Part shown: piece by piece, positions 31,401-64,000 of the stretch
Layout of the letters: each line of letters begins with the position of its first letter
Numbering within the stretch: position 1 is the first letter of the stretch
NCBI RefSeq assembly: GCF_963921235.1
Contig: NC_086097.1
Span: 98,830,001 to 98,894,000 of the forward strand
Direction: 5' to 3'
DNA length: 64,000 bases
Source: Mobula hypostoma
Lineage: Eukaryota
Notes under the pieces: model-generated
What the model was told of the DNA's origin: nothing
Seen by the model: only the letters and a program-made list of their open reading frames with translations
Databases searched by the model: none
Position numbers and translations under genes: made by a program

Positions 31401-34400
31401 TCTTCCTTGCTCATAGCCCATTTATGTTCAGTTTTTTCAGATTCTTTTAAGTTAGGTAGGTTACTGCAATCCTTTTACGAAGCCTCTATTTCGCTTATCC
31501 TTAAAAAGAATAAGAATCCAACTGAATATTCTTCATATAGACCAATTTCTTTACTTAATGTTGATGCTAAAATTTTATCTAAAGCCCTGGCCCGTAGGAT
31601 GGAAAATATCTTACCATCTGTCATTTCTGACGATCAGACTGGTTTTATTAAAAATTGACATTCTCATTTTAATATTTGTCGATTATTAAATATTACTTAT
31701 TCTCCTTCTAAAGAGATATCGGAGCGTGTGATATCCTTAGATGCTGAGAAGGCTTTTGATCGGGTTAAATGGCATTATTTATTTAAAATTTTAGAAAAAT
31801 TTAATTTTGAGTCCAACTTTATTCAACGGATTAAATTACTGTATTTATCACCTTTTGCTCGGGTTCTTACTCACTCTCAGAATTTGAAACCATTTAGACT
31901 TCAACGTGGAACCAGACAAGGTTGTCCTTTGAGTTCTTTGCTCTTTGACCTGGCTTTAGAACCTTTAGCTACTGCTTTTCCAGACTCTAACGATATCACT
32001 GGTATTTTACGGAAGGGTACTATCCACAAAATTTCACTTTATGCAGGTGATTTATTGCTTTACATTTCTAACGTTGAAACTTCATTACTTTCTGAGCTTT
32101 CTTTACTATCTTGTTTTAGTCAATTTTCTGGATATAAACTGAACCTACACAAGAGTGAACTTTTTCCTTTGAATATTTTGCCATTAACTGATATTAACCT
32201 TCCTTTTAAAATTGTAAGAAACCTATTCACTTATTTGGGTGTACCAATTACTAAGAATTATAAATACTTATTTGAAGAAAATTTTCTTACTTTATAAAAT
32301 TATATAAAAAGAATATTATCAAATTGGTCACCCCTTTTGTTATCATTGATTGGCTGAATTAATTCTATTAAAATGAACGTTTTACCTAAATTTATATATC
32401 TCTTTCAGGCATTACCCATTTTTATTCCTAAATCCTTTTTTGACTCTCTTGACTCTATTTTATCCTCGTACATATGGAAAAATAAACATCCTCGACTGAA
32501 TAAAGTCCATCTCCAGAAAGTTAAAAAGAATGGAGTTTTAGCTTTACCAAATTTTAGGTTTTATTACTGGGCAGCTAATATACGGAATCTCACGTTTTGG
32601 TGATACTATATTAACCACGAGGACTGTCCTGGGTGGGTTTCTTTAGAAGCTAACTTGGTTAATAAATTTTCTATTATCTCCCTATTGGGATCTTCACTTC
32701 CTTTATCCTTAAGTAAGGTAACTAAAAATATGGTAGTCAAACATACTTTAAGGATTTGAATACAATTTGGAAAACACTTTGGTTTATTGAGATTCTCCCT
32801 TTCTAGTCCCATTTTTTAAAATTATTTTTTAAAGCCTTCTATGACTGGTGTAGATTTTAAACAATGGGAAGGATTGGGCATTACACATTTCCGGGATCTG
32901 TTTGAGGGAGGAAGTCTTTCTTCGTTTGAACAATTGTCAACTAAATACAGTTTATCAAAAACCCATTTTTTTTGGTACTTACAAAATTAGAGATTTTCTG
33001 CGATCTCAATTATATACGTTTCCTAATAGACCTGATAAGAACGTACTAGATGAAATTCTTAATATGAAACCATTCTATAATGGCTCAATATCTAATATTT
33101 ATGATATGTTGTTGGGAATTCTTTAGACAAGATTAAAAATCTTTGGGAACAAGACTTACAGACCTCAATTTCTGAAGAAACTTGGAATGAGATTTTTAAA
33201 TTGGTTAATACTTCATCGCTATGTGCTCATCATTCCCTCCTACAATTTAAAGTGGTTCATAGGGCTATATGACCAAGGATAAATTATCTCGTTTTTATCG
33301 AGATATATCTCCCTATTGTGATAGGTGTAACAATGGAGAAGCTTCACTTATTCACATAGAACCATAGAACAATAGAAACTACAGCACAGAAACAGGCCTT
33401 TTGGCCCTTCTTAGCTGTGCCGAACCATTTTCTGCCTAGTCCCACTGACCTGTACACGGACCATATCCCTCCATACACCTCCCATCCATGTATCTGTCCA
33501 ATTTATTCTTAAATGTTAAAAAAGAACCCGCATTTACCACCTCGTCTGGCAGCTCATTCCATACTCCCACCACTCTCTGTGTGAAGAAGCCCCCCCTAAT
33601 GTTCCCTTTAAACTTTCGCCCCCTCACCCTTAACCCATGTCCTCTGGTTTTTTTCTCCCCTTGCCTCAGTGGAAAAAGCCTGCTTGCATTCACTCTATCT
33701 ATACCCTTCATAATTTTATATACCTCTATCAAATCTCCCCTATTCTTCTACGCTCCAGGGAATAAAGTCCTAACCTATTCAACCTTTCTCTGTAACTGAG
33801 TTTCTCAAGTCCCGGCAACATCCTTGTAAACCTTCTCTGCACTCTTTCAACCTTATTTATATCCTTCCTATAATTTGGTGACCAAAACTGAACACAATAC
33901 TCCAGATTCGGCCTCACCAATGCCTTATACAACCTCATCATAACATTCCAGCTCTTGTACTCAATACTTTGATTAATAAAGGCCAATGTACCAAAAGCTC
34001 TCTTTATGACCCTATCTACCTGTGACGCCACTTTTAGGGAATTTTGTATCTGTATTCCCAGATCCCTCTGTTCCACTGCACTCCTCAGTGCCTTACCATT
34101 AACCCTGTATGTTCTACCTTGGTTTGTCCTTCCAACGTGCAATACCTCACACTTGTCTGTATTAAACTCCATCTGCCATTTTTCAGCCCATTTTTCCAGC
34201 TGGTCCAAGTCCCTCTGCAGGCTCTGAAAACCTTCCTCACTGTCTACTACACCTTCAATCTTTGTATCATCAGCAAATTTGCTGATCCAATTTACCACAT
34301 TATCATCCAGATCATTGATATAGATGACAAATAACAATGGACCCAGCACTGATCCCTGTGGCACACCACTAGTCACAGGCCTCCACTCGGAGAAGCAATT

Positions 34401-36609
34401 CTCTACTACCACTCTTTGGCTTCTTCCATTGAGCCAATGTCTAATCCAATTTACCACCTCTCCATGTATACCTAGCGACTGAATTTTCCTAACTAACCTC
34501 CCATGCGGGACCTTGTCAAAGGCCTTACTGAAGTCCATGTAGACAATATCCACTGCCTTCCCTTCATCCACTTTCCTGGTAACCTCCTCAAAAAACTCCA
34601 ATAGATTGGTCAAACATGACCTACCACGCACAAAGCCATGTTGGCTCTCCCTAGTAAGTCCCTGTCTATCCAAATGCTTGTAGATTCTGTCTCTTAGTAC
34701 TCCCTCCAATAACTCACCTACTACCGATGTTAAACTTACTGGGCTATAATTTCCCGGATTACTTTTTGATCCTTTTTTAAACAACGGAACAACATGAGCC
34801 ACTCTCCAATCCTCCGGCACCTCACCTGTAGACAGCGACATTTTAAATATTTCTGCCAGGGCCCCTGCAATTTCAACACTAGTCTCCTTCAAGGTCCGAG
34901 GGAACACCCTGTCAGGTCCCGGGGATTTATCCACTTTAATTTTCCTCAAGACAGCAAGGACCTCCTCCTTTTCAATCTGTACAGTTTCCATGATCTCACT
35001 ACTTGTTTCCCTTAATTCCATAGATTTCATGCCAGTTTCCTTAGTAAATACAGACGCAAAAAACCTATTTAAGATCTCCCCCATTTCCTTTGGTTCCGCA
35101 CATAGCCGACCACTCTGATCTTCAAGAGGACCAATTTTATCCCTTACAATCCTTTTGCTCTTAATATAACTGTAAAAGCTCTTTGGATTATCCTTCACTT
35201 TGACTGCCAAGGCAACCTCATGTCTTCTTTTAGCCCTCCCGATTTCTTTCTTAAGTATTTCCTTGCACTTCTTATACTCCTCAAGCACCTTATTTACTCC
35301 CTGCTTCCTATACATGTCATACAACTCCCCCTTTTTCTTTATCAGAGTTGCAATATCCCTTGAGAACCGAAGTTCCTTATTCCTATTCACTTTGCCTTTA
35401 ATCCTGACAGGAACATACAAATTCTGCACTCTCAAAATTTCTCCTTTGAAGGCTTCCCACCTACCGATCACATCCTTGCCAGAGAACAACCTGTCCCAAT
35501 CCACGCTTTTTAGATCCTTTCTCATTTCTTCAAATTTGGCCTTCTTCCAGTTAAGAACCCTAGGACCAGATCTATCCTTGTCTATGATCAAGTTGAAACT
35601 GATGGTGTTATGATCACTGGAACCAAAGTGCTCCCCTACACAGACTTCTGTCACTTGTCCTAACTCGTTTCCTAACAGGAGATCCAATATTGCATCCCCT
35701 CTAGTTGGTCCCTCTATATATTGATTTAGAAAACTTTCCTGAACACATTTTACAAACTCTAAACCATCTAGACCCCTAACACTATGGGAGTCCCAATCAA
35801 TATATGGAAAATTAAAATCCCCTACACCACAACTTTATGTTTCCTGCAGTTGCCTGCTATCTCTCTGCAGATTTGCTCTTCCAATTCTCATTGACTATTG
35901 GGTGGTCTGTAATACAATCCCACTAATGTGGCCATACCTTTCCTGTTTCTCATGTTTTGGACTTGCCCAAATCTTGGAAAATATTGGAAGGAAATATTTC
36001 AAACTTTTTCTGTACTCTTTAAAGTAAATTTTAAGCCTAATCCTTTGATTGCCCTATTTGGTATTGTTGGAAGGAAAGATATCATTTTGAAGACATCTGA
36101 TCTGCACATTCTGGCTTTGATCTCTCTTATGGCTACGAGGGCACTTTTGTTTAAATGGAAGGATGCTGTCCCGCCTAATCATGCTTAGTGGTTACGGGAT
36201 GTTATGGCATGCCTAAATTTAGAAAAGATTCGTTGTTCAACTTCTGAATCTAACCAAGATTTTCAAAATTTGTGGGGGCCGTTTTTAAATCATTTTCATA
36301 ATCTTTGATTTCTTGTTAAAGTACAGAAGGCAGTTAATAGTATACTTTATTATCTGGTAAGTTTCTTTTTTCTTTTTTTTCCCCCCAAACAGCTTCAGCT
36401 TTGGTAGTGGGTGTAGATCTTTTTTTCTTTAAGAAAATTTTTTATATTCTAATATACGAACTAATCTAATCCATGTGAATATAGAGTAAGGAGTTCGTTA
36501 ATGTGATTCAATATACCGTATCTCTTTTGTATTCTCTTGAATTCTATTGTATTCTCTTGAACTCTGTATTCTTATATATATAGAAATCAAATCAATAAAA
36601 ATATTGAAA
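28432..36609 (+). mobile_element. Full-length degraded L1 (ORF1 ~28524-29318, ORF2 ~29944-36300), split by a CR1
   Basis: 15-bp TSD AGAAATCAAGACTCA (28417-28431, 36610-36624). ORF1 LENRSRRNN and HRAHR. EN NVKGL, LQETH. RT SLDAEKAFD, GTRQGCPLS. CCHC motif. AATAAA and A-rich tail. Confidence 0.96.
33358..35950 (-). mobile_element. Young 5'-truncated CR1 LINE with a 652-aa open ORF2 segment
   Basis: ORF 33729-35687 with [31 protein letters not shown]. (TTCTATGG)-type tail; CAT microhomology at the junctions. Confidence 0.96.
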
Positions 36610-46929: not shown

Positions 46930-47845
46930 GTGAGTAACTCCTGCCCTTTGGTTCTGGGCGAGCTGCATCCATTCGTTAGTATCGTGTGGATAAACCAATC
47001 AGGTCAGGTGACATGTGGAGAGAGAACAAGGTGGTGCGTTGGGTAAGGACCCCCAGCACCCAGGGCATGCCCTTTTCTCACTGTTACCATCAGGTGGGAG
47101 GTACAGAAGCCTGAAGGCACACACTCAGTGATTCAGAAACAGCTTCTTCCCCTCTGCCATCCGATTCCTAAATGGGCATTGAAACCATGAACACTACCTC
47201 ACTTTTTTTAATATTATTTCTGTTTTGCATTATTTTGAATCTTAACTATTCAAACAAAAATACACACACACACTTACTGACATTGATTAACTTTATATAT
47301 TATCATGCATTGAACTGCTGCTGCTAAGTTAACACATTTCAAGACACATGCTGCTGATAATAAACCTGATTCTGAAAGTCCTTAGCACTTCCATGGTTAG
47401 TGTTTAATACACATGGGTGAAGGGGAAAGGCAAAGAAACACTCAGACTGTGGCGCTTGTGAAACCCATGTTCTCTTTTCCATCTGTTCACATGTTTTCGT
47501 ATACCCCTCCTCTCTCTTGTACTCTCAGAGCTTGACAAGGTGAGTATTTCCTCCAGCTTAAGCCCACAAACCAGGATTCAGGGTTTGAACGTGTAGGGTC
47601 AGCCATTCAATGCAAAGAGGCTCAGAAATAATTTATCCTGATGGTGGTGAATCTTTGGAACTCTGCCCAAGACAGCTATGGAGCCTGGGGATAATCAAGG
47701 TGGAAATTGACAGGTTTTTAGATGTCAATAGATATGAGATGAGTACTTCTTGGGTAGAAGATCAGAAATTATCCATGCAAAGAGAAACAATTCATGTTTT
47801 AGGTCAGAGGCCCTTCATCAGAAATGCAAAGGTGAGTAAAACAAG

Positions 47846-48157
47846 TTGGTTTCAGTGGCTGAGAAGTGGTTTCAGTGGCCGAGAAGTGGTTTCAGTGGCC
47901 GCGAAGGGGTTTCAGTGGCCGCGAAGGGGTTTCAGTGGCCGCGAAGGGGTTTCAGTGGCCGCGAAGGGGTTTCAGTGGCCGCGAAGCGGTTTCAGTGGCC
48001 AAGAAGCGGTTTCATTCACAGAGAAGTGGTTTCAGTGGCTGAGAAGTGGTTTCAGTGACAGAGAAGTGGTTTCAGTGACAGAGAAGTGGTTTCAGTGGCA
48101 GAGAAGTGGTTTCAGTGGCAGAGAAGTGGTTTCAGTGGCAGAGAAGTGGTTTCAGTA
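47846..48157. repeat. 20-bp minisatellite (TGGTTTCAGTGGCNGAGAAG), ~15 copies
   Basis: Directly visible head-to-tail units. Confidence 0.97.
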
Positions 48158-48169
48158 AATGAGCAACAA

Positions 48170-49568
48170 GAGAGTGAGTCGTATGCTTTAATCTGAGTCC
48201 AGTGTTTCCACTGGCTGCTTTGCCGAGTCTGTACACAGACGCAGGTATCATTGGTTAAGAGTACCGTCTGTGGTCCTATCCACCAGGGGGCAAACCCTGG
48301 CCTTTCTGGCAGCACCCTCACCATAACTTGGTCGCCAGGCTGTGGAAGAACTATCCTCTTTCCCTCTGGCTCTCTCTGATCAGCGATTCGCTTCTGTTGT
48401 TACGCTCGGTCCTTTAGCACTTTAAGTTGGTTACAAAGGTCTTTCACATATTGGGTCATTCTATCCCTGTAAGTCCCAGGCTCCCCGCATCCGTAATTAC
48501 CCCATAAGAGAGTCGCATTGCTCGCCCCATCAATAATTCGTGGGGGTTGAGACCCATCGTGCGGTTCGGGGTTGCGCACAATCTCTTCTGGATTTCTGGG
48601 AATACATCGACCCCTGTCTTTCCTGTCTCAGCTATAGCCTTGGCTAACGCATTCTTGATTGTTCGGTTCATTCTTTCTGCCATCCCTGAACTCTGGGGGT
48701 GGTAGGGTACGTGGAACCGCTGTCGAATCCCTAGTAGTTGGCACATTTCCTTCATCACTTTCCCCGTGAAATGTGCTCCCTGGTCTGAATCCACCTGAAC
48801 TGGGGTTCACCACCTTGGGAGGATTTCCTGAACTAGGATCCATGCAGCAGTGCGGGCGGTGCAGTCCCTTGTTGGGAAAGCCTCTACCCACCGGGTGAAG
48901 TGATCCATAATTACTAGACAGTAGCTTTTCCCCCTGCTTTTGGGTAGGAGCCCCGTGAAGTCTATCTGAATGTTGCCAGCTGTAGCTTTCTGCCCTTACC
49001 AGGGTTATGCTGGGCACAAATGATACAACGGTGGCAGAATTTCTCAACATCCCTGCCCATCCCTGGCCGCCAGCAGCCCTGCCGGAGGGTTGTGATCATG
49101 CTCTGCCTCCCCTGATGCATCACCCCATGATATAACTTTACTAGTATCTGTCTAAGACAGGGTGTGGGTGTGGCAACTCTTTCCCCCCCATGTGTCCAGC
49201 ACCCACCTGGTCCCTTCTTTGCTCCTTTTCTCCTCCATTTTTCCTTCTCTTCTGCCTCTACCTCTTCACAGAATTTTATTAAACTGGCTTCTCTCATTCC
49301 TTCCTGCACACTTGCAATTTCAATTGCCTCTTGTTCCTCTGCTGCCATCTTCGCAGCGACATCTGCCCACTCATTTCCCTTTTGTTTCATGCTCTCACCC
49401 TTCTGGTGCGCTTTTACCTCAATCACTGCCACCTCTTCTGGCAGGCTCACTGCTTCCAGTAGCTGTTGTATAGGTGCCCTTGCTGAATATTAGTACCTGT
49501 TGAAGTTATGAATCCTCGTCGTGCCCAAGCCATTAGGTAATCATGCACCACCCCGAATGCATACCGAC

Positions 49569-49609
<41 letters not shown>

Positions 49610-50414
49610 GTCTGCCCTCGCTGCAGCGTAGAACTTCTATCAGAGCTACCAGTTCTGCTACCTGAGCTGAGCAACCCCCTGGCAGTGCTCCTGAAGCTAA
49701 CTCTTCACCTGTTTCCTTCACCATGGCCTACCCAGTTCGTGGTTTCCCATCTATGTACCTCCTAGACCCATCTATAAAGATTTCATCTGCTGTTCCTTCC
49801 AGAAGTGTTTCCTTCACACCAATATCTTCTTCCTTGACAATTTCTATTTGGCACTCGTGCTTCTCCCTCTGTTAAGATGGCGTTCGTGGGATTCTCCCCA
49901 GTGTCTAACTATGGTTACTGACTTGTCCTTTGGAATGAGAACTGCCTCCCAAGCTGCTCTTCGGCTATCGGTGACTGCCCTCAGCCCTTCCGTGTTTAGG
50001 AGCTCTACAATGGTGTGGGGTGTGTGTAGGATCAGTTGCCCCATCATCACAACTGGTTTGCTTACTCGCACAGCCTACGTGGCGCAGTCCAAAGCTGCAA
50101 CACAGTGGGGGAGCCCTACCGCAGCAGGGTCCTGTTTCGTAGAATAATAGGCCACTGGCCTTCTAGCGTCCCCATGGTCCTGTACCACTACCGCGTTGTA
50201 GTACCCTCCCTCGTTACTACAGTATAGATGCAAGGGGCGAACTGCATCTGGTAACCCTAGCACGGGTGCAGAGACCAGGGCTTTCTTGTTTTCTATAAAG
50301 GCCTTTTCCTCTTCCGACCCCCACTTTACTTCTTCCAGAGGGGCTTCCCTCCTTTAATCGAGGCCTGTATCAGGGCCACTAGTGCTGAGAACCCCGCTAT
50401 AAAATTTCGGTAGT
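48170..50414 (-). pseudogene. pol: ERV tether, RNase H and integrase remnant
   Basis: Successive minus-strand ORF fragments with tether, RNase H, HHCC, DDE and C-terminal PGDQV..W.GP motifs; several stops and frameshifts. Confidence 0.9.
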
Positions 50415-52566
50415 TTAATTTGATGTTGGAACCTTTGGCTATTGCACTTCGTGAAGCTAAAGATATTCAAAGAATTTCCATAAATGGGACTATTCTTAAG
50501 ATCTCCCTTTATGCTTTATCTCTTAGTTTATGTTTCGAATCCTGAAGAATCCATTCCTAGTTTATTGAAATTATTAAATGAATTTGGAAAGTTTTCGGGA
50601 TATAAATTAAACCTCAATGAAAGTGAATTATTTCCTCTAAATGATTATGCTTCTATATATGATGACATTCCTTCTAAAGTTATCGACTCTTTCAAATATT
50701 AGTATTGTCGTTACTAAAAATTATGGAGACCTTTATAGAGCTAATTTGGTTCCCTTAGTCGATTTTATGAAGCAAATATTTTGTAGATGGAATCCACTTA
50801 CACTTTTGTTAGCTGGCTGAATTCATGCAGTTAAAATGATGATTTTACCAAAATTTTTATATGTATTTCAAAATATTCCTATTTTTTTAACTAAGAAGTT
50901 TTTTTGATCAGGTTGATTCTATTATTTCATCTTTTGTTTGGAATAATAAAAGACCAAGAATTGGAAAATATCATTTACAAAAATCAAAAAAGGATGGAGG
51001 TCTTGCTCTGCCTAATTTAAGAGTGTATTATTGGGCGGTTAATATACATTATGTGTGTTCTTGGTTATATTGGACTGATAAAAATGAATGACCACCTTGG
51101 GTTGATTTGGAATTGAAAGCTGTGAAACAATTTTACTTAACTTTGTTATTAGGAGCCTCTTTACCTGTACAACTGGCCAAAATTTCTAATCTAAATTTAT
51201 ATCTATGATTAAGCAGTCATTACGAATTTGGTACCAGTTTCATAATTTTTTTAATCTTAAAAAGTTTAACCTTCTTAGTTTAATTTAGCAAAACTATCTA
51301 TTTAAACCTTCACTTAGTGATCCTACCTTTTTTTTGAGGAATAAAAGAGTTTATTCCTTCATGGATCTGTTTCAAGAAGGTAGATTGATGTCTTTTGAGA
51401 AATTAGAAACTAAATATTCCCTCGCGCACTCACATTTCTTGCAATATCTTCAGGTCAGACATTTCTTACACGAATATTTAAGTAATTTTCCATATATACA
51501 AGATTCTGACCTGTTAGACATTATTTTAAAAATGAATCCTTTAGTGAAAGGTTTTATTGGGAAAATTTATAATTTACTATCACAACAGTATAATTATCCT
51601 TTACTTAAGATTAAGCAAGATTGGGAAAGGGAGCTTAATATGACCTTGATATCAGAGGATTGGTTGTGAATTTTGAAGTTGGTTAACTTCTTCGATTTGT
51701 GCCAGTCACTCTCTAATTCAATTTAAAATTGTACATTGTTACTATTTGACAAAGGAGAGACTGTCTAAAATATTTCCTAATGTTGGTAGTCAGTGTGATA
51801 GACGTAAAACTGAGACAGCTATATTGACACATATGTTTTGGTTGTGTTCTGTATTTTAACAGTTTTGGAAATCTATTTTCTCTATAATTTCTAAAACTTT
51901 AAAAATTAATTTACAACCTAATAAATTGACTGTTTTGTTCGGTATAATCCCTCAATATATTCACAGTATTTCTTTATCAGACCAACATGTAATTGCATTT
52001 GTCACATTATTGGCCAGAAGGGCTATTTTATTAAAATGGAAAGATGCCTCTGCTCCCACTTTGATACAATGGTTCTCTCAGATGATGTTATGTCTTAGTT
52101 TGGAGAAAGTTAGAAGTCGAACTTTTGATCCTTGATTTGACTTTGAGAAAATGTGGGGTTCTTTTGCCCGCTATCATTTGATTTGAGTTCATTAAGATGG
52201 TCCCATTCTGATTCTTGTGTAATTGGATTTGGTTGGCGGATTGATATTTTTCTTTTGTGGAAGCTTGTATGGTGTATAGCTCCGGGGTTGTGCTCCCAAT
52301 GGGTTTTTTTTCCCTCTCTTTTTTTTCAGTTAGTAGGGTTTTTTTTTGTTTTAGTTAGTAGGGGTTCTTTTTTCCTTCTTTCTTTTTCCCAAAAAAATAG
52401 TTTTAACATTTTGTTTTTTCTTATTATTATTGGTATACTGTTTAGCTTGGTTAATCAGTTATTTGATAGTTTAACTTTTATTGTACATATTGATATGTCG
52501 ATTTGACTACTTTAATGTAATTTTTTTGTTGATTTTCAATAATAATAAGATTTAAAAAAAGAAAAA
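50415..52566 (+). mobile_element. 5'-truncated L1 inserted in ERV pol
   Basis: ORF2 remnants (FSGYKLNL, HMFW.C, LARRAILLKWK) and an A-rich tail. TSD AAAATTTCGGYAGT at 50401-50414 and 52567-52580. Confidence 0.93.
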
Positions 52567-53288
52567 AAAATTTCGGCAGTAGTTAAACAAACTCACCACC
52601 TTTCGAACTCCCCTTATGTTGACTGGGCGGGGTATGGAGCTGATTGCCGAACGTCTGTCATCTGACATGTCCTTCCTCCCTTGGGAAATGGTGTAGCCCA
52701 GGTATTGTACGGTTCGTTTGCCCAGCTGAGCCTTGTGCAGACTGATTTTAAACCCCTCATCCTGCAGTACCTCTAAAATACTGGCTATCGCTCCTAAATG
52801 GCCTGCTTCATCTTCCGAAGCAATGAGTAGATCATCTACATATTGTAAGATGGTTGACCGGTAGGGCATTAAATGGAGCTTTTCCGAAGTCTGCGCCATG
52901 ACTTTATGAAAAATAGCTGGGCTATTGTGGAACCCCTGGGGGAGTCTTGTCCACGTATACTGCTGCCCACCCAGGGTGAAGGCAACTCGGTCTTGGGATT
53001 CAGGTGCTAAGGGGAGCCCCCAGAACCGATTAGCGATGTCCAGGACTGAAAAAAATTTATGTTCTGGAGACAGGCCATTCAGGATTGTCGCAGGGCTCAC
53101 CACGATGGGATTCAATCTGGGCGTGGTCTTATTAAGGGCGGTATAGTCTATTGTTAACCGATATGACCCGTCGGGTTTCTTTACTGGCCATATAGGTGAG
53201 TTAGTAGTGGCCGCTGTCTCTCTGAGTATCCCCTGGTGTTTTAGTTCCTTCACTATACCCGGAACAGCTGCCAGCGTGTCAGGTTTTA
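52567..53288 (-). pseudogene. pol: ERV reverse transcriptase core
   Basis: 233-aa ORF with LDIAN.F, LPQGFHNSP, QYVDDLLI, YLG and LFNYCRNF. Confidence 0.93.
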
Positions 53289-54401
53289 TCTATCTATGTA
53301 CTACTAAAACTCTCATGCTCTGTCTGTTTGTCTGTTTGTGACCTCCAGTTAGTGCAAATGGTGCATTACAGCTGCACTTTTTTTGGCTCAATCGAATTAA
53401 AATGTGTTAACTTACAGAATGCAGGCGAAGTTCAGGGTTATGTATTCGTATAAAATTGCTCATTCGCCAAAAATCCACAGGCTGGCTTTCACCTGAGACC
53501 CAGTCGGCCATCCTGGAAATCGGGACGCGACTGCCCAAAGCCTGCGTACGGCCAGCCTCAGCAGCGACACCTACCGGAGCAAAAGGGCAGGGCAGCTCTA
53601 TTTCGAGGGGTCACATTCTGCTAATCACCATTATTAGCATGTGCAGGATTGGGACAGAGCTAACTGCCACCCATCAATAAGAGGTAATTAAATCTTATTG
53701 TAATGACGTACTTCGAGACACCCATAAAACCCTTTGCTGCAGTCAAAAGACAGCGGTGACTATATCACGTCCACTTAGGAGAACGCCAACCACATCATCA
53801 AGAATAATCAGCATCCTGTGATGTTACTGCTTCGCATCTTCTATCCAGCATTAGGGTAAAAAAAAATGGTCAGCCTAATTATGCCGCGTGGAAAGGAAAG
53901 GGGAACATTATGGTCAAGAGATGACGCCAGACATTGTCGGGAAGTGGCAAGGAGAGGGAGAAAACAAGAATTGGATGAGGCCAGGGCTGCACGACTCCAG
54001 GATCAAAGAGTCAGGACAGAAAAAGATGAGAGAAGAAGAGACAGAGGAGGAGAGGCATGCACGTCTCCAGGATCAGAGACAAACAACAAACAGCAAACAG
54101 CAGAAGAGATGAAGAGATGGGGGATGAAAGGACTGCACGTCTCCAGAATGACAACGAGAGGCACGAGGGTGGCAGATAAACCAGAAATGATACCATCAAA
54201 AGTGTCCTTCATTAAACAAGGAGGAGCTATATTTGCTTTGCTACGCATCGTTCTTCTTCAATAAACTGAGGTTTTCTACTTCAATTTCCAAAGCAAAGCA
54301 ATATCAATAGCATTCAGGAAAATTTAATGTTCATTCTGGTCACATCAGACTGCACTACCCTTCACTCAAAGGGTGCCCCAACGGGTCACCCCGTTGTCTA
54401 G
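53289..54401 (+). mobile_element. Non-autonomous Helitron inserted in ERV pol
   Basis: 5' TC, 3' hairpin CAACGGG..CCCGTTG then CTAG, inserted between A and T with no TSD. Removal restores QYPIKPD. Internal E.EEERHARLQDQR repeats resemble Rep/Hel N-termini. Confidence 0.88.
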
Positions 54402-56121
54402 TAGGATACTGCTTTTTATGCAGGTCCCCATCTATTTTAACTGGGTCTGTCTTTACCTGCCCACAATCTTGCTTGTGTGTAGCCCACACAGCTGGGAACA
54501 GCTGACAAAGTAAACCATAGACACCATCCTGGCTCCAGTCTCTAATGATCGGGACAGCTGCGCTTATGCTAGCCAGGTTATGTATTCTGTTGGTTGTGCG
54601 CGTTCGCTGCCCCTGACTCATCCATATTATTTCTCCCTTTCCAGAATCTATAACAGCTCCTGCTTCCCGTAGGATGTCTATTCTAAGGATTGTGCCCTCA
54701 TTATTTGGACATACCCAGAAATACACTGGAAGCTGCACTCCCCCGATTTCTAGTATTTGCGACTCGCTTCTTTCTGCTTTTAACGTTTTTTCCTCCTGCT
54801 CCTGTAATATAAACAACCTGTTCGGTTGTTGGCAAGGGTAAGTATGTTATTGATACTGATGCCTTTGTGTCCACTAACATATTGCATTGCCGGCCCCCTA
54901 ACAATGCTGTTCTGTACATCTGCGGGTCACCAGCGCTGGCAGTGGGGGCCGCCACCACATCTTTTCCTGACCTAGGAGCCGTCTTTACTAGTTCTGAGAT
55001 CTGATCAGCAGTCAGATTGGACAGACTGGGTGCTGATGGGGTGAGTGACTGGGAGTCTGCCAGCTCCTTCACCTGGGTTTTCCCCCTCCCTTTTGGACAC
55101 AGTCTCCAGCCATGTCCCGATAGGCCACAGCTGTAGCATATCAACTCCTTCACTGTCTTAAACCTGGTCCGGCAGTCCTTTGCTAGGTGCCCTGGCTGCT
55201 GGCAAGCAAAACAAGCTCTCCAGGACATCACAGCAGCTGAATCCACTATACCCATTTTACAATTTCTCTTGCCTTTTCTTTGGTTTATCTCACTGGCCCA
55301 CAAAACTATCACAGAGTAGTTGGACCCCACCATTATGCCTAAATCTAAAACTTCCTGGTGGCTGAGCTCAGGCCTTCCTTCAGCATTTTCAGGAAGACTG
55401 GGTCATCCCTCCCTGGGTTATCCAACCTGGAATACTCCTCGTAAACTCGGTATTTACATTTTGCATAATCCATGGCTGTCTCGTCAGCTTTTTGAATCAC
55501 TGCTATTATCGTTCCCCAGCTACTCTCGCCTCCCCCCAGGCGCTGCCTCATTTCCCCTTTAAAAGAGCGATATCTTTCTTCATTACTGGCGCTCCCGGTA
55601 GTTGTCCATGTACCATCCCGCACCCCCTGGGCCATCCTGTCCCACATATTCCTCGGGCACTGGGCTTTCACTAACACGTGTATGTCTTTAGGGTGCATCT
55701 GGTGAATTTCAACCATTTCCTCGAGCTTGCACCAGAATTCTGAATTCCCACAGGCGACTTTAAGTGAGGGCAACTTGGACAAAATGCTCTGTTTCTCCCC
55801 TGGGGTGAAGGGCTTATGAATAGTCGTAATCAAGGTCAAGGGCTGGCTCGGATCATCAGGGTTCTCAACCTGACTTTGCCTGACCTCAATAGGTGCCATC
55901 CTGGCAGACCTATCTGGGTAAAACCTCTCCCTGAGGTATTCCCACACTACGCAAAATATAAAAGACAGGTACCAGTCCAACAGCACATAGTTAAGATCAC
56001 AAAGTATGTATTCCACAATCTGCCACTTTTGGGTACCTGAACTCATGATGCCTGCTGTATTCCTTTGCATCACACTGGCAAACGCATACACTAAAATGCA
56101 GCTCCCCGAACAAGTATACAC
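54402..56121 (-). pseudogene. gag: ERV gag-pro remnant (frameshifted)
   Basis: ORFs 55345-56121, 54701-55333 and 54355-54816: capsid-like region, two CCHC knuckles, protease LVDT and GTILRIDIL. Confidence 0.85.
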
Positions 56122-56397
56122 GCCTTACTCTGGCGTCTTGAACCGTACCGTCGGTTACCACCTATCGCAACTGGTGGCTCCGTCTCACCAAGTTAACGTG
56201 CAAAGTTTCCTCACTTACATAAACACACATGCACACGCACACACTATTATATCTACCAGTTCAGCTCTCCGCGTTGGTGATATCTCATGTTCCCGTGTGC
56301 CACCGACCGAACAGATCCAAGTGTGAGTGTTATTTTAGAAAAATACTCACCAACTTAGACTGCTAAGATCGCTGGCCACACAGTGGATCACGAAGGT

Positions 56398-56415
56398 ATC
56401 CCACTCCTCACACCA
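56398..56415 (-). promoter_or_regulatory. Primer-binding site, tRNA-Leu(CAG) type
   Basis: Minus strand TGGTGTGAGGAGTGGGAT matches 17/18 to the complement of the recalled vertebrate tRNA-Leu(CAG) 3' end ATCCCACTCCTGACACCA. Confidence 0.85.
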
Positions 56416-56417
56416 AA

Positions 56418-58460
56418 TGTTGTAGTGTGGATGAAATCACCGGAGAGACAGAGTTTCTGGTAGACACAAAGCAGCTTCTTTATTCGACACAACAAGGTAC
56501 AGCAGGCATCATACGGATGGAGACGTTTTCGGTAGAAAGGTCTCCTAGCCCAATGTGGGCTCGATATTTATTTGCTAAACACAAAGGGCAATCTCTATTT
56601 ACAAAGTACAGGTGTCCCCTGCTTTTCGATCGTTCGCTTTACGAAACCTCACTGTTACGAAAGACCTACATTAGTACCCTGTTTTCGCTTTCAGAAGGTG
56701 TTTTCACTTTTACCAAAAAAAGTGCGCGGGGAAAAGCAGCGCGCGATAAAAGGCAGCGTGCGCCCCGAGCAGCCGCTCTCCCTGGATTCGGAACTGCATT
56801 CTCGCCGGCATTGCTTAAACACGTGCCTGTGAGCAGTTGTTTGCAAGATGAGTTCTAAGGTATTGGAAAAGCCTAAAAGAGCTCGTAAGAGTGTTACACT
56901 TAGTGTAAAACTAGACATAATTAAGTATTTTGATCGTGGTGAACGAAGTAAGGACAAAGTGAGTTTGGCTTGTGGAAGCTGACGAAGATGATGTTGAAGA
57001 TTTTTTGGCATCCCATGACCAAGATCTGATAGATGAAGAGCTGATGCAATTGGAAGAGGAAAGGATAACAATTGAAACTGAATACAGTAGCGAACGGACC
57101 GAAAGTGAAGTCGTCCAGGAACTGAACATGAAGCAACTGCGTGAGATTTTCGCTGCAATGATAAAGTACGACTTTAATTTTGAAAGGGTACGTAGGTTTA
57201 GGGGATATTTGCAGGATGGTTTGAGTCCTTACAAAGAACTGTATGATAGAAAAATGCGCGAGGCTCAGCAGTCAAGCAAGCCTTCCACATCAGCCACAGC
57301 AGACAATGATCCTCGACCTTCGACATAGAGGCAGGCAGTCATAGGAGAAGATGAGCTGCCTACTCTAATAGAAACAGATGACACCCCAGTGTCCCACCAC
57401 CCCAACCCCCAGGCCATAGACAAATACTGATTCACAGAGAATGCAGCGGTAGCCGGGAGGCACACAGCACATCTTTAAGAAAAAAGCCGAAATAAACATG
57501 CTAATTAATTAGGTGCCGCCCAACACGTAATTAATTAGCATGTTTATTTCAGCTTTTTTCTTAAAGATGTGCTATGTGCCTCCCAGCTACCGCACCACCC
57601 AACCTGCGACGACACAGTCTAACACACCATCATCAGTGTTCTCTGCGCTGTCTTCCCAATTCCGGTAAGTGATACTACACTGTACGTACATTATTTCTAC
57701 TTTATATAGGCTGTGTATTTTTACGTGTTATTTGGTATGATTTGGCAGCTTCATAGCTTAAAGGTTACTGGAGAGCGCTTGCGCCGTGTTTTTGCCAACA
57801 GCGCTTGCGTGAGATTTTCTGCCGACGGTGCTTGCGCAAGATTTTCGCTACGGAGAACAGTTCAGTAATGATTGTGGAAAAGTATTTCTACTTTATATAG
57901 GCTGTGTATTTATCATATCATTCCTGCTTTTACTATATGTTACTGCTATTTTAGGTTTTATGTATTTGGCATGATTTGGTAGGTTATTTTTGGGTCTGCG
58001 AACGCTCACAAATTTTTCCCATATAAGTAGCAATTGCTTCTTCGCTTTATGACATTTTGGCTTACGAGCCGTTTCATAAGAACGCTGTACCTTCGGATGG
58101 GGGGCAGGGGGGATACCTGTATAGACAATACTTTCTTTTGAAGCTACATACAAAACATCACACCTTCTGACTTCATCCTTTCCTCCTGACGCCAACATGT
58201 CTGGGTTGGTACTCACAGCCTTTAGGAATGCAAGTTAAATCCACAATACATTTATTTGGTATTTTACGTGCTAAAATAGAGGACAATTCATATTTATAAA
58301 GTATAGATAAGGCTGTCTTCGAAACTACCTGTAAACTTCACACTTCCATCCGCAGCGTCTGGGCTAGTATTCCGGTATTCACAGCTTTTAGGAACAGCAT
58401 TGTTACAAATGAACTGGGTTCACAGCTTTTAGGAAATGCATTGTTGTGAACTCAATCCAC
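56418..58460 (-). repeat. 5' LTR of the ERV (~530 bp after removing the Tigger insertion)
   Basis: On the minus strand it begins TGTGGA at 58460 and ends CAACA at 56418, 2 nt before the PBS. AATAAA lies at ~56479-56484 on the minus strand. The distal boundary is less certain because there is no second LTR to compare. Confidence 0.7.
56609..58119 (+). mobile_element. Tigger/pogo-like DNA transposon deletion derivative inside the ERV LTR
   Basis: TIRs CAGGTGTCCCC ... GGGGATACCTG and TA TSDs at 56607-8 and 58120-1. Transposase N- and C-terminal remnants (DVEDFLASHDQDLIDEELMQLEE..PYKELY). Confidence 0.9.
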
Positions 58461-58849
58461 AGTACTTTCTCAAACAGAAGACTGGTGGCCAGAGTCACTT
58501 AAGTGTAAATGAATCATCTACCCAAAAACTCACTCTAACACCTCCCTCCCCATTCCCCCCCTCGCACCTCCCTCTCCTTCAGCCCCTCCCCCCTCCCCCT
58601 TGCCCCTTCCTCCTCTCTCCCTCCCCTACCCCCAGTCCCCTTCTCCCTGAGGAACAGATGAGGCAAATCAGTGGTGAAACCATTGGTTTCTGGATTTTCA
58701 GAGGCTTTTGATAAGTTGTTGTTGAAAGGTATCGAAGAAGATAGAGCATGTGGAATTGGGGATAATATATGAATGTGATTTGGGATTTGGTAAATTGGTT
58801 TATTATTGTCACATGTATTGAGATACAGTGAAAAAGTTTGTTTTTAAGA

Positions 58850-61690
58850 CCAGTGGTGCAGAATTAGGCTATTTGGCCTGTTGATTCTGCTCTGTCATTT
58901 CATCATGGCTGATCGAATTTTCTCTCTCAGATCCAGTCTTCTGCCTTCTCCCTATATCCCTTCATGTCCTGACCAGTCAAGAATCTTTCAACTTCTGCCC
59001 TAAATATAGATTAGATTAGATTATGAGGACACTCAGTCCTCGTTTATTGCCATTCAGAAATGCATGCATTAAAAAATGATACAACGTTCCTCCAGAATGA
59101 TATCACAAGAAAAACACAGGACAAACCAAGACTAAAACTGACAGAACCACATAATTATAACATATAGTTACAACAGTGCAAAGCAATACCATAATTTGAT
59201 AAAGAGCAGACCATGGGTACGGTAAAAAGAAGTCTCAAAGTCCCGATAGACTCATCATCTCACGCAGGCGGCAGAAGGCAGAAACTCCCTGCCATGAAGT
59301 GCCGCCAACTTGCTGATGCAGCACCATTGGAAGCACCCGACTGCAGCGGACTCTGAGGTCCGTCTGAAAACTTTGAGCCTCCGACCAGACCTCCGACACC
59401 GAGCACCATCTCTGCCGAGCGCTTCCACCCCGCCCCGGCTGCCAAACAACAAGCAAAGCTGAGGACTTGGGGCCTTCCCCTCCGGAGATTCTGGACCACA
59501 CAGTAGCAGCAGCAGCGAAGCAGGCATTTCAGAAGTTTCACCAGATGTTCCTCCGTGCTCACATGTCTGTCTCCATCAAATCAGGATTTCGCACGGCACC
59601 CTACTTGACAAATAACAGACATCACCACTGGAGTGGCCACTGCGAGCTGCGTCGCGCCGCCATCTTCTCCTTAAATATACATAATGATTTTGCCTCCACA
59701 GCCTCATGTGGCAAGGAATTGCATAGATACACCACTCTCTGGCTAAAGAAATTCCTCTTCATCTCAGTTGTAAAAGGACACCCCTCTATTCTGAGGCTGT
59801 GTCCTCTGGTCTTAGACTCTCCCACCACAGGAAACATTCTCTCCTCATCCACTCTATTAAGGCATTTCACTATTCAATAGGTTTCAATGAGGTCACCTTT
59901 CATTCTTCTGAATTCCACTGAATACAGGCCCAGAGCCATCAAACACTCTATATGACAAGCCATTCAATCCCAGAATAATTTTTGTGAATCTCCTTTGAAC
60001 CCTCTCCAGTTTCAGCACATCATTTCTAAGTTAAGGGCCCCAAACTGATCACAATATTCCAAGTGAGGCCTCATCAGTGCCTTATAAGGTCTCAACATTT
60101 TATCCTTGCTTTTATATTCAGGTCCTCTTCAAATGATTGCTAAGTTCGCATTTGCCTTCCTCACCACAGATTCAACCTGCAAATTAACCTTTAGGGAGTC
60201 CTGCACAAGGATTGCGCCTCCGATTTTGTTTTCTCTCCATTTAGTAAATAGTCAACCATTTCATTTCTTCTACCAAAGTACATGACCGTACACTTCCCGA
60301 CACTGTATTCCATCTGCCACTTATTTGCCCAGTCTCCTATTCAATCTAAGTCCTTCTGTAACTTCTCTGCTTCCGCAAAACTACCTGCCCCACCACCTAA
60401 CTTCATATCATCTACAAACTTTGAATCAAAGCTATTAATTCAATCATCCAAGTTATTGACATAATGTAAAAAGAATCGGTCCCAATGCAGACCACTCTGG
60501 AACACCACTAGTCACCAGCGACCAGCCACAAAAGACTTCCTTTATTTCCACTCTTTGCCTCCTGCCAATCAGTCACTGTTTTATCTGTGCTAGAATCTTT
60601 CCTGTAAAACCATGGGCTTGTAGTCTTATAAACAGCCTCATGTAGCACCTTGTCAAAGGCCTTCTGAAAATCCAAGTACACAATATCATCTGATACTCCT
60701 TTGTCTATCCTGCTTGTTATTTCTTCAAAGAATTCAAACAGATTTGGCAGGCATGATTTTCTCTTGAGGAAACCATGCTGACTATGGCGTATTTTATCAT
60801 GTGCACCCAAGTATCTTGAGACCTCATCCTTAATAGTCAACTCCGACATCTTTCCAACCACTGATGTCAGACTAATTGGCCTATTGTTTCCTTTTTTCTG
60901 TCTCTCACCTTCTTGAAGAGTGGAGTGATATTTGCAATTTTCTAGTCTTCCGGAACCATTGGGAATCTACTGATTCTTGAAAGATCATTACTAATGCCTC
61001 CACAGTCTCTTCAGCCACCTCTGTCAGAACTCCGGGGTGTACACCATCTGGTCCAGGTGACTTGTATACCTTCAAATCTTCCAGTTACTCAAGAACCTTC
61101 TCTCTAGAAACAGTAACTTCACAACTTCATGCCGTCTTACACCAGTAACTTCCTCCATACTGCTAGTAACTTCCATGGTGAAGATTGATGCAAGATAATT
61201 ATTGAGTTTGTCTGCCATTTCCTTGTCCCCCATTACTACCTCCTCAGCATCATTTTCCTGCTGTCTGATATCCACTCTCGCATCTCTTTTACACTTCATG
61301 AATCTGAAGAAACTTTTGGTATCCTCTTTAATATTACTAGCTAGCTTACTTTTCTATTCCATCTTTATCACCTTAATTAATTTTTAGTTGCCTTCTGTTA
61401 CTTTATAAAAACTTCCCCAGCCTCTATCTTCCCATTAATTTTTGCTCTATTATATGCCCACTTTTTATGTTGGCTTTGACTTCTCTTGTTAGCCACGGTT
61501 GTGTCATCTTTCCTTTCAAATACTTTCTCCTCTTTGGGATGCATATGTCTTGTGCCTTCTCAATTGCTTCTGGAAGTTCCAACTGTTGCTGCTCTGGCAT
61601 CATCCCTTCCAGTGTTCTTTTCCAATCAGTTCTGTCCAGTGCCTTGCTCATGCCTCTGTAGTTTCCTTTACTCCACTGTAATATTGATAC
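58850..61690 (-). mobile_element. Degraded CR1 LINE
   Basis: SQHGF.KSCL.NL, DFQKAFDKV and PWLTREVK remnants, plus a CR1 3' UTR near 58860. Confidence 0.92.
59009..59671 (-). mobile_element. Same element, copy 2
   Basis: Head GGAGAAGATGGCGGCG, (TAATC)n tail, TSD TAAATATA (59001-59008, 59672-59679). Confidence 0.88.
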
Positions 61691-62574: not shown

Positions 62575-64000
62575 CAATGCCTCTAAAAAGTATTCGCCCC
62601 CACCTGGAAGTATTTATGTTTTATTGTTTTACAACATTGAATCACAGTGGATTTAATCTGGCTTTTTTTTTGACTCTGGTCAACAGAAAAAGAGTCCTTT
62701 GAGTTAATAAAAACTTATTACTACAAAGTGATCTAAATTAATTTCCAAATATAAAACATGAAATAATTGCATATGTATATACCCGCGACTAGGCGGTATT
62801 TAGTAGATGAACCTTTGGCAGCAATTACAGCCTTGAGTCTGTGTGGATAGATCACTATCAGCTTTGCAAGTCTGTGCACTGCAATTTTTTCCCATTCTTT
62901 ACAAAACTGCTCAAGCCCTGTCAGATTGCATGAGGGTTGTGAGTGAACAGCCCTTTTCAAGTCCAGCCACAAATTCTCAATTGGATTGAGGTCTGGACTC
63001 TGACTTGGCCATTCCTGTGTAGCTTTGGCTTTATGCTTGGGGTCGTTGTCTTGCTGGAAAACAAATCTTCTCCCAAGTCACAGTTCTCTAGCAGACTTCA
63101 CCAGGTTTTCCTCCATGATTTCCCTGTATTTTGCTGCATTCATTTTGCCCTCTACCTTCACAAGCCTTCCAGGGCCTGCTGCAGTGAAGCATCCCCACAG
63201 CCTTGCAGTGATCCCCTGCAGTGATGCAGTCACCACCATGCTTCATGGTAGGGATGGTGTGTTTTTCATGACGTGCAGTGTTTGGCTTATGCCAGATATG
63301 GTGTTTAGTCATAAGCCAAAAAGCTCAATTTTGGTTTCATCAGACCAAAGAACCTTCTTCCAGCTGACTTCAGAGTCTCCCACATGCCTTCTGGCAAACT
63401 AACTGATATTTCTTGTGAGATTTTTTTTCAACAGTGGCTTTCTTTTTGCCACTCTCCCATAAAGCTGCAACTGGTGAAGCACCTGGGCAACAGCTGTTGT
63501 CTGCACAGTCTCCCCCATCTCAGCCACTGAGGCTTGTAACTCCTCCAAAGTTGTCATAGATCTCTTGGTGGCCTCCCTTGCTGGTCCCCTTCTTGCACAG
63601 TCACTCAGTTTTGAGGACAGCTCTATTTCTTGATGATTGACTGAACTGTACTCCAAGGGATATTTAGTGACCTAGAGATTTTCTTGTAGCCATCTCCTGA
63701 CGTGCTTTTCAATAACCTTTTTGCAGAGTTGCTTGGAGTGTTCTTTTGTCTTCATGGTGTAGTTTTTGCCAGGATATTGACTCACCAGCAGTTGGACCTT
63801 CCAGATACAGGTGTATTTTACTACAATCAATTGAAACACCTTGGCTGGACACGGTGATCTCCATTTAACTAATTATATGACTTCTCAAACCATTTGGCTG
63901 CACCAGTGATGATTTGGTGTGTCATATTAAAGGGGCTGAATACTTATGCAGTCAATTATTTTGTGTTTATATTTGTATATTAATTTAGATCACTTTGTAG
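62575..64000 (-). mobile_element. Degraded Tc1 transposon with long (~200 bp) inverted repeats, cut by the window end
   Basis: TA|CAATGCC..AAAAGTATT terminus; 62720-62785 is inverted at 63930-64000. Transposase remnants GRVAKRKPLL, WSDETK, PTMKHGG, SPDLNPIENLW. Confidence 0.92.

Follow-up and report, generated by a model that had tools for sequence, protein, structure and literature searches.

An env-less, multi-copy endogenous retrovirus family in the ray Mobula hypostoma, probably from the stem of class I

Endogenous retroviruses (ERVs) related to snakehead retrovirus (SnRV) have been reported from elephant shark (PMC4422223), and according to PMC4299795 such elements are still unclassified and the groups outside classes I and II are not monophyletic. 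SnRV itself is infectious and carries env and accessory genes (PMC12193657). The whale-shark element Rh_ty_ERV4 is given in S2 Data of Xu et al. 2018 (PMC6001957) and stands, judged by label order, in the clade Huo part of S2 Fig. of that paper; the cyprinid elements Grar.ERVi.1, Grar.ERVi.4 and Rrut.ERVi.3 (Wang and Han 2023; PMC10435555) have intact gag-pro-pol-env and are still invading by that paper's criteria. In mouse, the change from IAPE to IAP consisted of a new Gag addressing signal plus the loss of env (PMC10924933). Here we describe a damaged provirus on the minus strand of a 64,000-nucleotide window of the Mobula hypostoma genome (contig NC_086097.1, positions 98,830,001 to 98,894,000; all coordinates below are window positions), together with its sister copies elsewhere in the genome. 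The account that we regard as probable is that of an env-less, multi-copy family, in a lineage at the base of class I, which spread as a germ-cell retrotransposon after env was lost and the matrix was traded for a leader.

The locus copy resembles Rh_ty_ERV4 in two exact runs of the reverse transcriptase (RT), KPDGSYRLTIDYT and YTWTRLPQGFHNSPAIFH (13 and 18 residues, found by eye), in the first 132 RT residues, of which a count by eye finds approximately 60% identical, and in the YVDD motif; the ray family also has in common with it the protease start LLGGRQC.MLVDTGASVS, two zinc knuckles and an in-frame stop equally far before the protease. Rh_ty_ERV4 differs in being another family from another host, and its stop between gag and pro is TGA, whereas it is TAG in the ray family. 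On these likenesses the locus copy reads as a cousin of the whale-shark family listed in 2018. Among proteins that carry a name, the closest come from Mobula (87%, Gag), Mustelus (65%, RT) and Heterodontus (50%); a search of viral contigs gave no relative, and a metagenome search returned a single distant match (26%).

The provirus family is abundant. Scoring 150 out of 15,207 candidates in the 3.48-Gb genome gave at least 156 RT matches, about 95 of them at 50% identity or more, and at least 40 matches to the long terminal repeat (LTR) were scored among 2687 candidates. The family layout is LTR, primer binding site (PBS) for tRNA-Leu, gag, pro, pol, approximately 0.85 kb of further sequence, polypurine tract and LTR, the polypurine tract and 3′ LTR being observed in sister copies only. 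Alongside it, the genome carries class I-like ERV families in which the frames of pol and of a gamma-type env are long and open.

The short distance between integrase and the 3′ LTR is the stronger argument for the absence of env, and weighs more than the domain search described below. In eight of the 10 proviral loci compared first, the 3′ LTR lies 804–853 nt past the point at which integrase is cut in the locus copy; of the other two, one shows a longer gap and one ends early. A further 29 loci were the best matches among 39 scored. In 28 of them the 3′ LTR is reached at 521–1128 nt past this point, with 24 at 807–867 nt, and the remaining one gave no LTR match. Approximately 60 codons of the gap are integrase tail. 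In 24 copies compared, the post-integrase region has stops common to most copies in all three sense frames, with a longest run of 61 codons, and these shared stops rule out an accessory open reading frame 3′ of integrase. Longer gaps at three loci (L022, L073 and L075) consist of pieces of long interspersed elements (LINEs) or of a Tigger-like transposon, which rules out env there, and those at three others (L070, L072 and L078) are assigned in part only. Older subfamilies, with 60–73% RT identity, have the same short 3′ region as the younger copies.

As a control, a search of the genome with the Pfam family TLV_coat recovered at least 78 pieces of env. The 12 kb that follow each of the 95 family RT matches contain none of them, and 15 of the 51 RT matches to other ERVs (<50% identity) have one within 12 kb; these counts use 146 of the 150 listed RT rows, four second fragments having been dropped. 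The family copies examined are env-less, and this is likely a secondary loss. The sequence-only reading of the window had proposed a genome search with the LTR for full copies and an inspection of their env; the sister copies lack env, and their matrix is replaced.

A family without env could also have been non-autonomous, a defective passenger that depended for its copying in trans on a helper of its own lineage with an env. Trans-mobilised morphs are common (PMC10924933), and at least eight copies have no gag stop, so that the Gag:Pol ratio would be disturbed in this subfamily. Set against this are the retention of full-length pol, the absence of env-bearing kin beside the 95 family RT matches, and selection on RT between env-less subfamilies: the ratio of nonsynonymous to synonymous change (dN/dS) between the locus copy and three older-subfamily copies (L008, L009 and L012) is 0.29–0.35, and RT is under purifying selection between subfamilies. 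We regard a passenger as quite improbable.

Across 10 copies gag forms a common stop-free frame of 411 codons, closed by an in-frame stop 5′ of the protease. The capsid (55348–55896, minus strand) was modelled with AlphaFold from an alignment of 29 relatives (of 35 found), giving an N-terminal beta-hairpin and helical domains at a predicted local distance difference test score (pLDDT) of 92; the fold from the single sequence is poor (pLDDT 66). When the model was compared with viral proteins by Foldseek, epsilonretrovirus Gag proteins came out on top, those of walleye epidermal hyperplasia virus (WEHV) 2 at E = 1e-5 and walleye dermal sarcoma virus (WDSV) at 4e-5, and the matches in PDB were the capsids of human T-lymphotropic virus 1, murine leukemia virus (MLV) and bovine leukemia virus, that of MLV being best with a template modelling score of 0.50. 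The major homology region (MHR) aligns with Gag_p30 at a score of 32, where none of 20 shuffled versions exceeded 16, but the probability is only 38%, and ESM Atlas gave a lead to Gag_p30 only below 0.9. Pfam found no capsid family in the locus copy or its nearest relatives, and a PDB sequence search with the capsid was empty. By its model, the capsid fold is orthoretroviral and nearest to those of epsilonretroviruses.

What precedes the capsid differs from the relatives. Four of these (P0010, P0254, P0261 and P0267) have 144–192 residues of matrix and coiled coil; in the family no more than about 98 codons are available before the capsid, or 57 if counted from the first shared ATG. In the locus copy the place of the matrix is taken by a short open stretch with a hydrophobic segment (55897–56124, minus strand), lying within the family-wide stop-free frame. 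The 19-residue hydropathy of this leader is 1.4–1.6 in four in-frame copies versus 0.0–1.1 in 12 relatives, and a profile of the relatives' matrix matched none of 21 family frames and two of four controls. The usual matrix domain is absent from the copies examined, with a short hydrophobic leader in its place. A simpler view is that the matrix was just deleted, that Gag begins at the capsid methionine and that the hydrophobic stretch is a non-coding leader; an ATG shared exactly at the capsid start and a hydropathy that is only moderate fit such a deletion. It is made rather unlikely by the common stop-free frame, which continues for about 98 codons upstream of the capsid ATG and includes two more shared ATGs, in a region where 4 and 6 stops, respectively, are shared in the two remaining frames.

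The junction of gag and pro takes two forms. An in-frame TAG is seen in six of 10 copies, and a subfamily of at least eight copies, to which the locus copy belongs, has no stop there (site 54955–54975 in the window; loci L087–L092). The Mobula hypostoma protein XP_062926799.1 (P0257; the 87% match) is likewise one continuous Gag-protease frame. Pattern counts of the two junction types (5 and 8) come from patterns that are unequally strict and are not comparable.

Homologs with the motifs NSP.WPV.K..G..RLT.DY, LPQG..NSP and YVDD occur in sharks, teleosts, coelacanth, frogs, turtles and birds. An RT tree of 73 rows, built under a mixture model, puts the locus copy inside the retroviruses (100/99), apart from the loki-like and gypsy rows. 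Its clade there also holds Mustelus, Heterodontus and P0003 (100/94) and adjoins teleost lineages (92/88); the deeper branches are weak. It lies outside the class I, foamy, ERV-L-like and SnRV groups, and a grouping of SnRV with the locus copy was not recovered. SnRV is represented by P0048, which is identical to it in the RT text of the PMC7947760 supplement, lokiretroviruses by one loki-like protein (P0213), and ERV-L by P0232 and P0233. P0213 is a loki-like Pol from an ENA contig, with the variants MPFG and FVDD; P0232 and P0233 are fish ERV-L-like Pol proteins with dUTPase and YIDD, one of them from Nothobranchius furzeri. The RT of the three cyprinid elements is nearly that of P0005 and P0006, in the teleost group adjoining the ray lineage.

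Because pol of the locus copy is in pieces, two intact relatives (P0123 and P0126) stand in for it in whole-Pol trees. They form a clade with the teleost lineages and class I (100/99), without SnRV, ERV-L and foamy viruses, and the grouping keeps a support of 100 when a mixture model is used and 14 rows, some of them long, are omitted. Grouping with class I also appears for integrase (92, with the locus copy's own frame) and for RNase H (98). On both RT and Pol the lineage lies outside the class I clades themselves (100/99 and 100/100) and sits in the adjoining grade. In whole-Pol approximately unbiased (AU) tests (LG+G4, with the stand-ins), monophyly of Huo, with every row outside class I and the foamy viruses joined in one clade, is rejected (p = 3e-7), and a clade of this lineage with SnRV is marginally rejected (p = 0.045). 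With RT alone, a tree constrained to the class I-stem position is 5.5 log units better than the free tree. A recombination of a Huo RT with a class I 3′ half is not required, since the RT tree is free of conflict with the class I-stem tree. The family belongs to the Retroviridae and, by motifs compared by eye, to the Rh_ty_ERV4 lineage; its membership of Huo varies by marker, and the probable position of the lineage is at the base of class I (gamma/epsilon).

The published alternative is that the lineage belongs with SnRV in clade Huo, and that the class I signal reflects either an exchange of RNase H and integrase or model error. Rh_ty_ERV4 has that place in the 2018 figure, monophyly of Huo is not rejected by RT alone (AU p = 0.44), the 5-bp target duplication of the family is like that of ERV3/ERV4 (PMC4299795), and retroviral domain replacement is documented (PMC7947760). 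The whole-Pol tests and the better score of the class I-stem constraint on RT count against it, and the capsid, too, points to epsilonretroviral Gag; we judge this placement unlikely, though it retains a real share of our belief.

SnRV resembles the ray family in WPV.KPDGS.RLTIDY, LPQGFH.SP, YVDD, a dual RNase H and an MLVIN_C tail, but its RT is only 42% identical to that of the locus copy and it is not the sister group in whole-Pol trees. With class I (reticuloendotheliosis virus, WDSV and WEHV) the family shares Gag knuckles, the MHR, an in-frame gag stop, the integrase tail and a capsid nearest to epsilonretroviruses; class I has QDLR or HDLR where the RT motif here is IDY, and a 4-bp duplication versus the 5 bp found here. 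The duplication length and the one or two knuckles of class I are from a table in PMC4299795, and knuckles and a GPF/Y-type integrase tail are both found in the ray family. ERV-L and XtERV-S have the NSP.WPV.K.DG motif and the 5-bp duplication in common with it, and are described as having YIDD and dUTPase and as lacking knuckles (PMC8278194). They form a separate clade in the RT tree, and the ray family has YVDD and knuckles. Mammalian ERV-L is also env-less. Foamy virus Gag has neither knuckles nor MHR, and the ray RT is outside the foamy clade; Ty3/gypsy elements have a single RNase H, whereas that of the ray family is dual and its RT is outside the gypsy clade. None of the lokiretroviral features (CPFG or TPFG in place of LPQG, an F-like env, membership of the loki clade) was found in the family. 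Motifs and trees together rule out a loki, foamy, ERV-L or gypsy identity.

The sequence-only reading had seen in the combination of class III-like and class I-like motifs the mark of a poorly described, deep-branching lineage. The mix itself is not unusual: SnRV has WPVGKPDGSWRLTIDY together with YVDD and lokiretroviruses have NSPIWPV with YVDD, but CPFG (both in the PMC7947760 supplement), and the set recurs in dozens of Pol proteins from fish, coelacanth and frogs, so that the mix is ancestral and common. Nor does the leaning to class III, which that reading took from the SPIWPV motif and Leu priming, survive, as whole Pol groups with class I. It remains a true retrovirus of a deep, little-described cartilaginous-fish lineage that falls within neither class I proper nor ERV-L, the foamy viruses or the lokiretroviruses, and in the literature searched the lineage has no name or description beyond supplementary entries. 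Its whale-shark member was already in the 2018 data set (PMC6001957), however, and teleost relatives in that of 2023 (PMC10435555). Nesting within a described shark or ray ERV family, which had been named as the outcome that would speak against novelty, is largely what we find, by the Rh_ty_ERV4 motifs read by eye; nesting within Ty3/gypsy was not seen. An undescribed lineage defined by its motifs is thus largely refuted by Rh_ty_ERV4, and we give it very little credence. Within the same literature, which consists mostly of open papers and does not include Repbase, we found neither an account of a family from this lineage that lacks both env and matrix nor a placement of the lineage on the class I stem.

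We return to the env-less germ-cell retrotransposon at the base of class I, which we prefer. Its ancestor would have borne an env, as the lineage is nested among env-bearing relatives; env would then have been lost and the matrix exchanged for the short hydrophobic Gag leader, which, as in mouse IAP, may target Gag to a membrane inside the cell. Reverse transcription would be primed by tRNA-Leu in intracellular particles, with Pol made by readthrough of the gag stop codon or, where the subfamily lacks that stop, as part of a Gag-Pol fusion. Since env and the usual matrix are both missing, the family likely spread inside germ cells in the manner of a transposon, and we infer that it works like an IAP-type intracellular ERV. 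Mouse IAP shares with it the loss of env and a new Gag N-terminus, but belongs to an unrelated retroviral class (class II) and host, and addressing is experimentally shown there, whereas here it is deduced from sequence. The family would thus be an example, far from mammals, of env loss coupled with a remodelled Gag N-terminus, which suggests a general route from virus to transposon. A more specific version, that a class I-stem retrovirus of cartilaginous fish independently became IAP-like by losing env and replacing its matrix with an addressing leader, and that SnRV and Huo form a grade giving rise to gamma and epsilon, we hold tentatively, at somewhat short of an even chance. The lineage fills a gap between SnRV-like elements and class I, and, should the whole-Pol trees be borne out, Huo would be a grade and the gamma/epsilon ancestor would have had an IDY-type RT, YVDD, two knuckles, an in-frame gag stop and a 5-bp duplication.

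Several points weigh against this preferred account. The leader hydropathy is moderate, with relatives reaching up to 1.1, and the leader is frameshifted in three of seven copies scored. Among young copies RT dN/dS averages 0.55 and ranges up to 1.25, with CpG decay uncorrected. The 29 further loci were chosen as best matches to the locus copy, so that a rare env-bearing copy may have escaped, and the TLV_coat search is a lower bound and blind to an F-like env. On the side of placement, the whole-Pol result depends on the two stand-ins, RT alone separates neither position (AU p = 0.44 and 0.63), and the trees are without class II retroviruses and a WDSV-type reference.

The locus itself is an ordinary dead copy, truncated at its 3′ end and interrupted three times. 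The signals listed by the sequence-only reading, namely an LTR, a 17/18 tRNA-Leu(CAG) PBS, two CCHC knuckles, NSPIWPVKKPDGSYRLTIDY, LPQGFHNSP, YVDD, and a tether with a separate RNase H, are all present, and all lie on the minus strand, as do the provirus features that follow. The 5′ LTR (56418–58540; approximately 600 nt net, TG...CA) is interrupted by the Tigger-like insertion and matches both LTRs of the sister proviruses; it extends 80 nt past the end that had been given to the element. The three insertions are confirmed. The PBS (56398–56415) matches at 17 of 18 positions the 3′ end, with CCA added, of the host's own tRNA-Leu(CAG) genes, and at all eight sister loci checked 17–18 of 18 positions fit. 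Downstream of the capsid lie the nucleocapsid (55097–55213), with its two knuckles at 55172–55213 and 55097–55138, and the protease region (54402–54930), which is frameshifted, has an altered active-site motif and is in the same frame as the knuckles with no stop between. RT (52581–53288) lies in an open frame of 52552–53289 that includes NSPIWPVKKPDGSYRLTIDY, LPQGFHNSP and YVDD and matches RVT_1 in Pfam (E = 3e-30). It is followed by the tether (49889–50414), a degenerate first RNase H that is frameshifted and matches RT_RNaseH_2 (E = 3e-12), by RNase H (49471–49871), which gives two weak Pfam pieces and is disrupted both by frameshifts and by a (TA)n run (49575–49603), and by integrase (48161–49200; Integrase_H2C2, rve), with a stop in the core, an MLVIN_C-like tail whose match is weak (E = 0.001, under the cut-off) and its 3′ end lost. 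The domain order of protease, RT, tether, RNase H and integrase is retroviral.

Apart from the insertions, frameshifts and stops affect gag, protease, tether, RNase H and integrase, and the RT frame alone is unbroken; tblastn of P0126 against the locus gives nine pieces in three frames. The integrase tail is gone, and sister copies are free of all three insertions. The provirus is cut at approximately 48160, adjoining a 20-bp minisatellite of 15.5 copies (47847–48156) at the point where its 3′ part is lost; no second LTR was found anywhere in the window, and an Rfam search of 47000–60000 gave no match. After integration the copy gained the LINE, the Helitron-like and the Tigger-like elements and lost its 3′ end.

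In the sister proviruses the LTRs are approximately 570 nt and the two of a pair differ at 5–9% of aligned sites (nine proviruses, some partially aligned). The shark rate assumed in PMC4422223 would put this divergence at 115–205 million years and a mammalian rate at one tenth of that, the age of insertion depending on the rate chosen. Among seven proviruses readable at both ends, the target duplication is 5 bp and exact in three, 5 bp with a mismatch or slip in two, 4 bp in one, and none was seen in one.

The first of the three insertions (50415–52566, plus strand) is an AT-rich, 5′-truncated LINE with poly(A), flanked by a 14-bp target duplication (50401–50414 and 52567–52580, with one mismatch) and matched in tblastx by other LINE pieces within the window. 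The second (53289–54401, plus strand) has TC...CTAG ends and an A|T target without duplication; we presume from its hallmarks that it is a non-autonomous Helitron-like element, and 40 matches to it were scored among 1617 candidates in the genome. The third (56609–58119) is recognised by its boundaries and inverted ends as an internally deleted DNA transposon with short terminal inverted repeats and a TA duplication. Pfam gave no match in it, and its assignment to the Tigger/pogo-like family is presumed from hallmarks; a second copy is present in sister locus L073. It holds a 70-nt hairpin, 94% perfect, at 57446–57593.

Elsewhere in the window, a 701-codon open frame at 33729–35834, which we presume from its motifs to be a CR1-like LINE, has a 93% similar piece inserted in sister provirus L022. 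Remnants at 62733–63400 and 29935–32297 are, by their motifs, presumably those of a Tc1-like transposase and of L1-like LINEs, respectively. Between 41800 and 45000, approximately 3.2 kb are nearly pure G/A (GC skew 1.0), a very long polypurine tract that is possibly a product of assembly.

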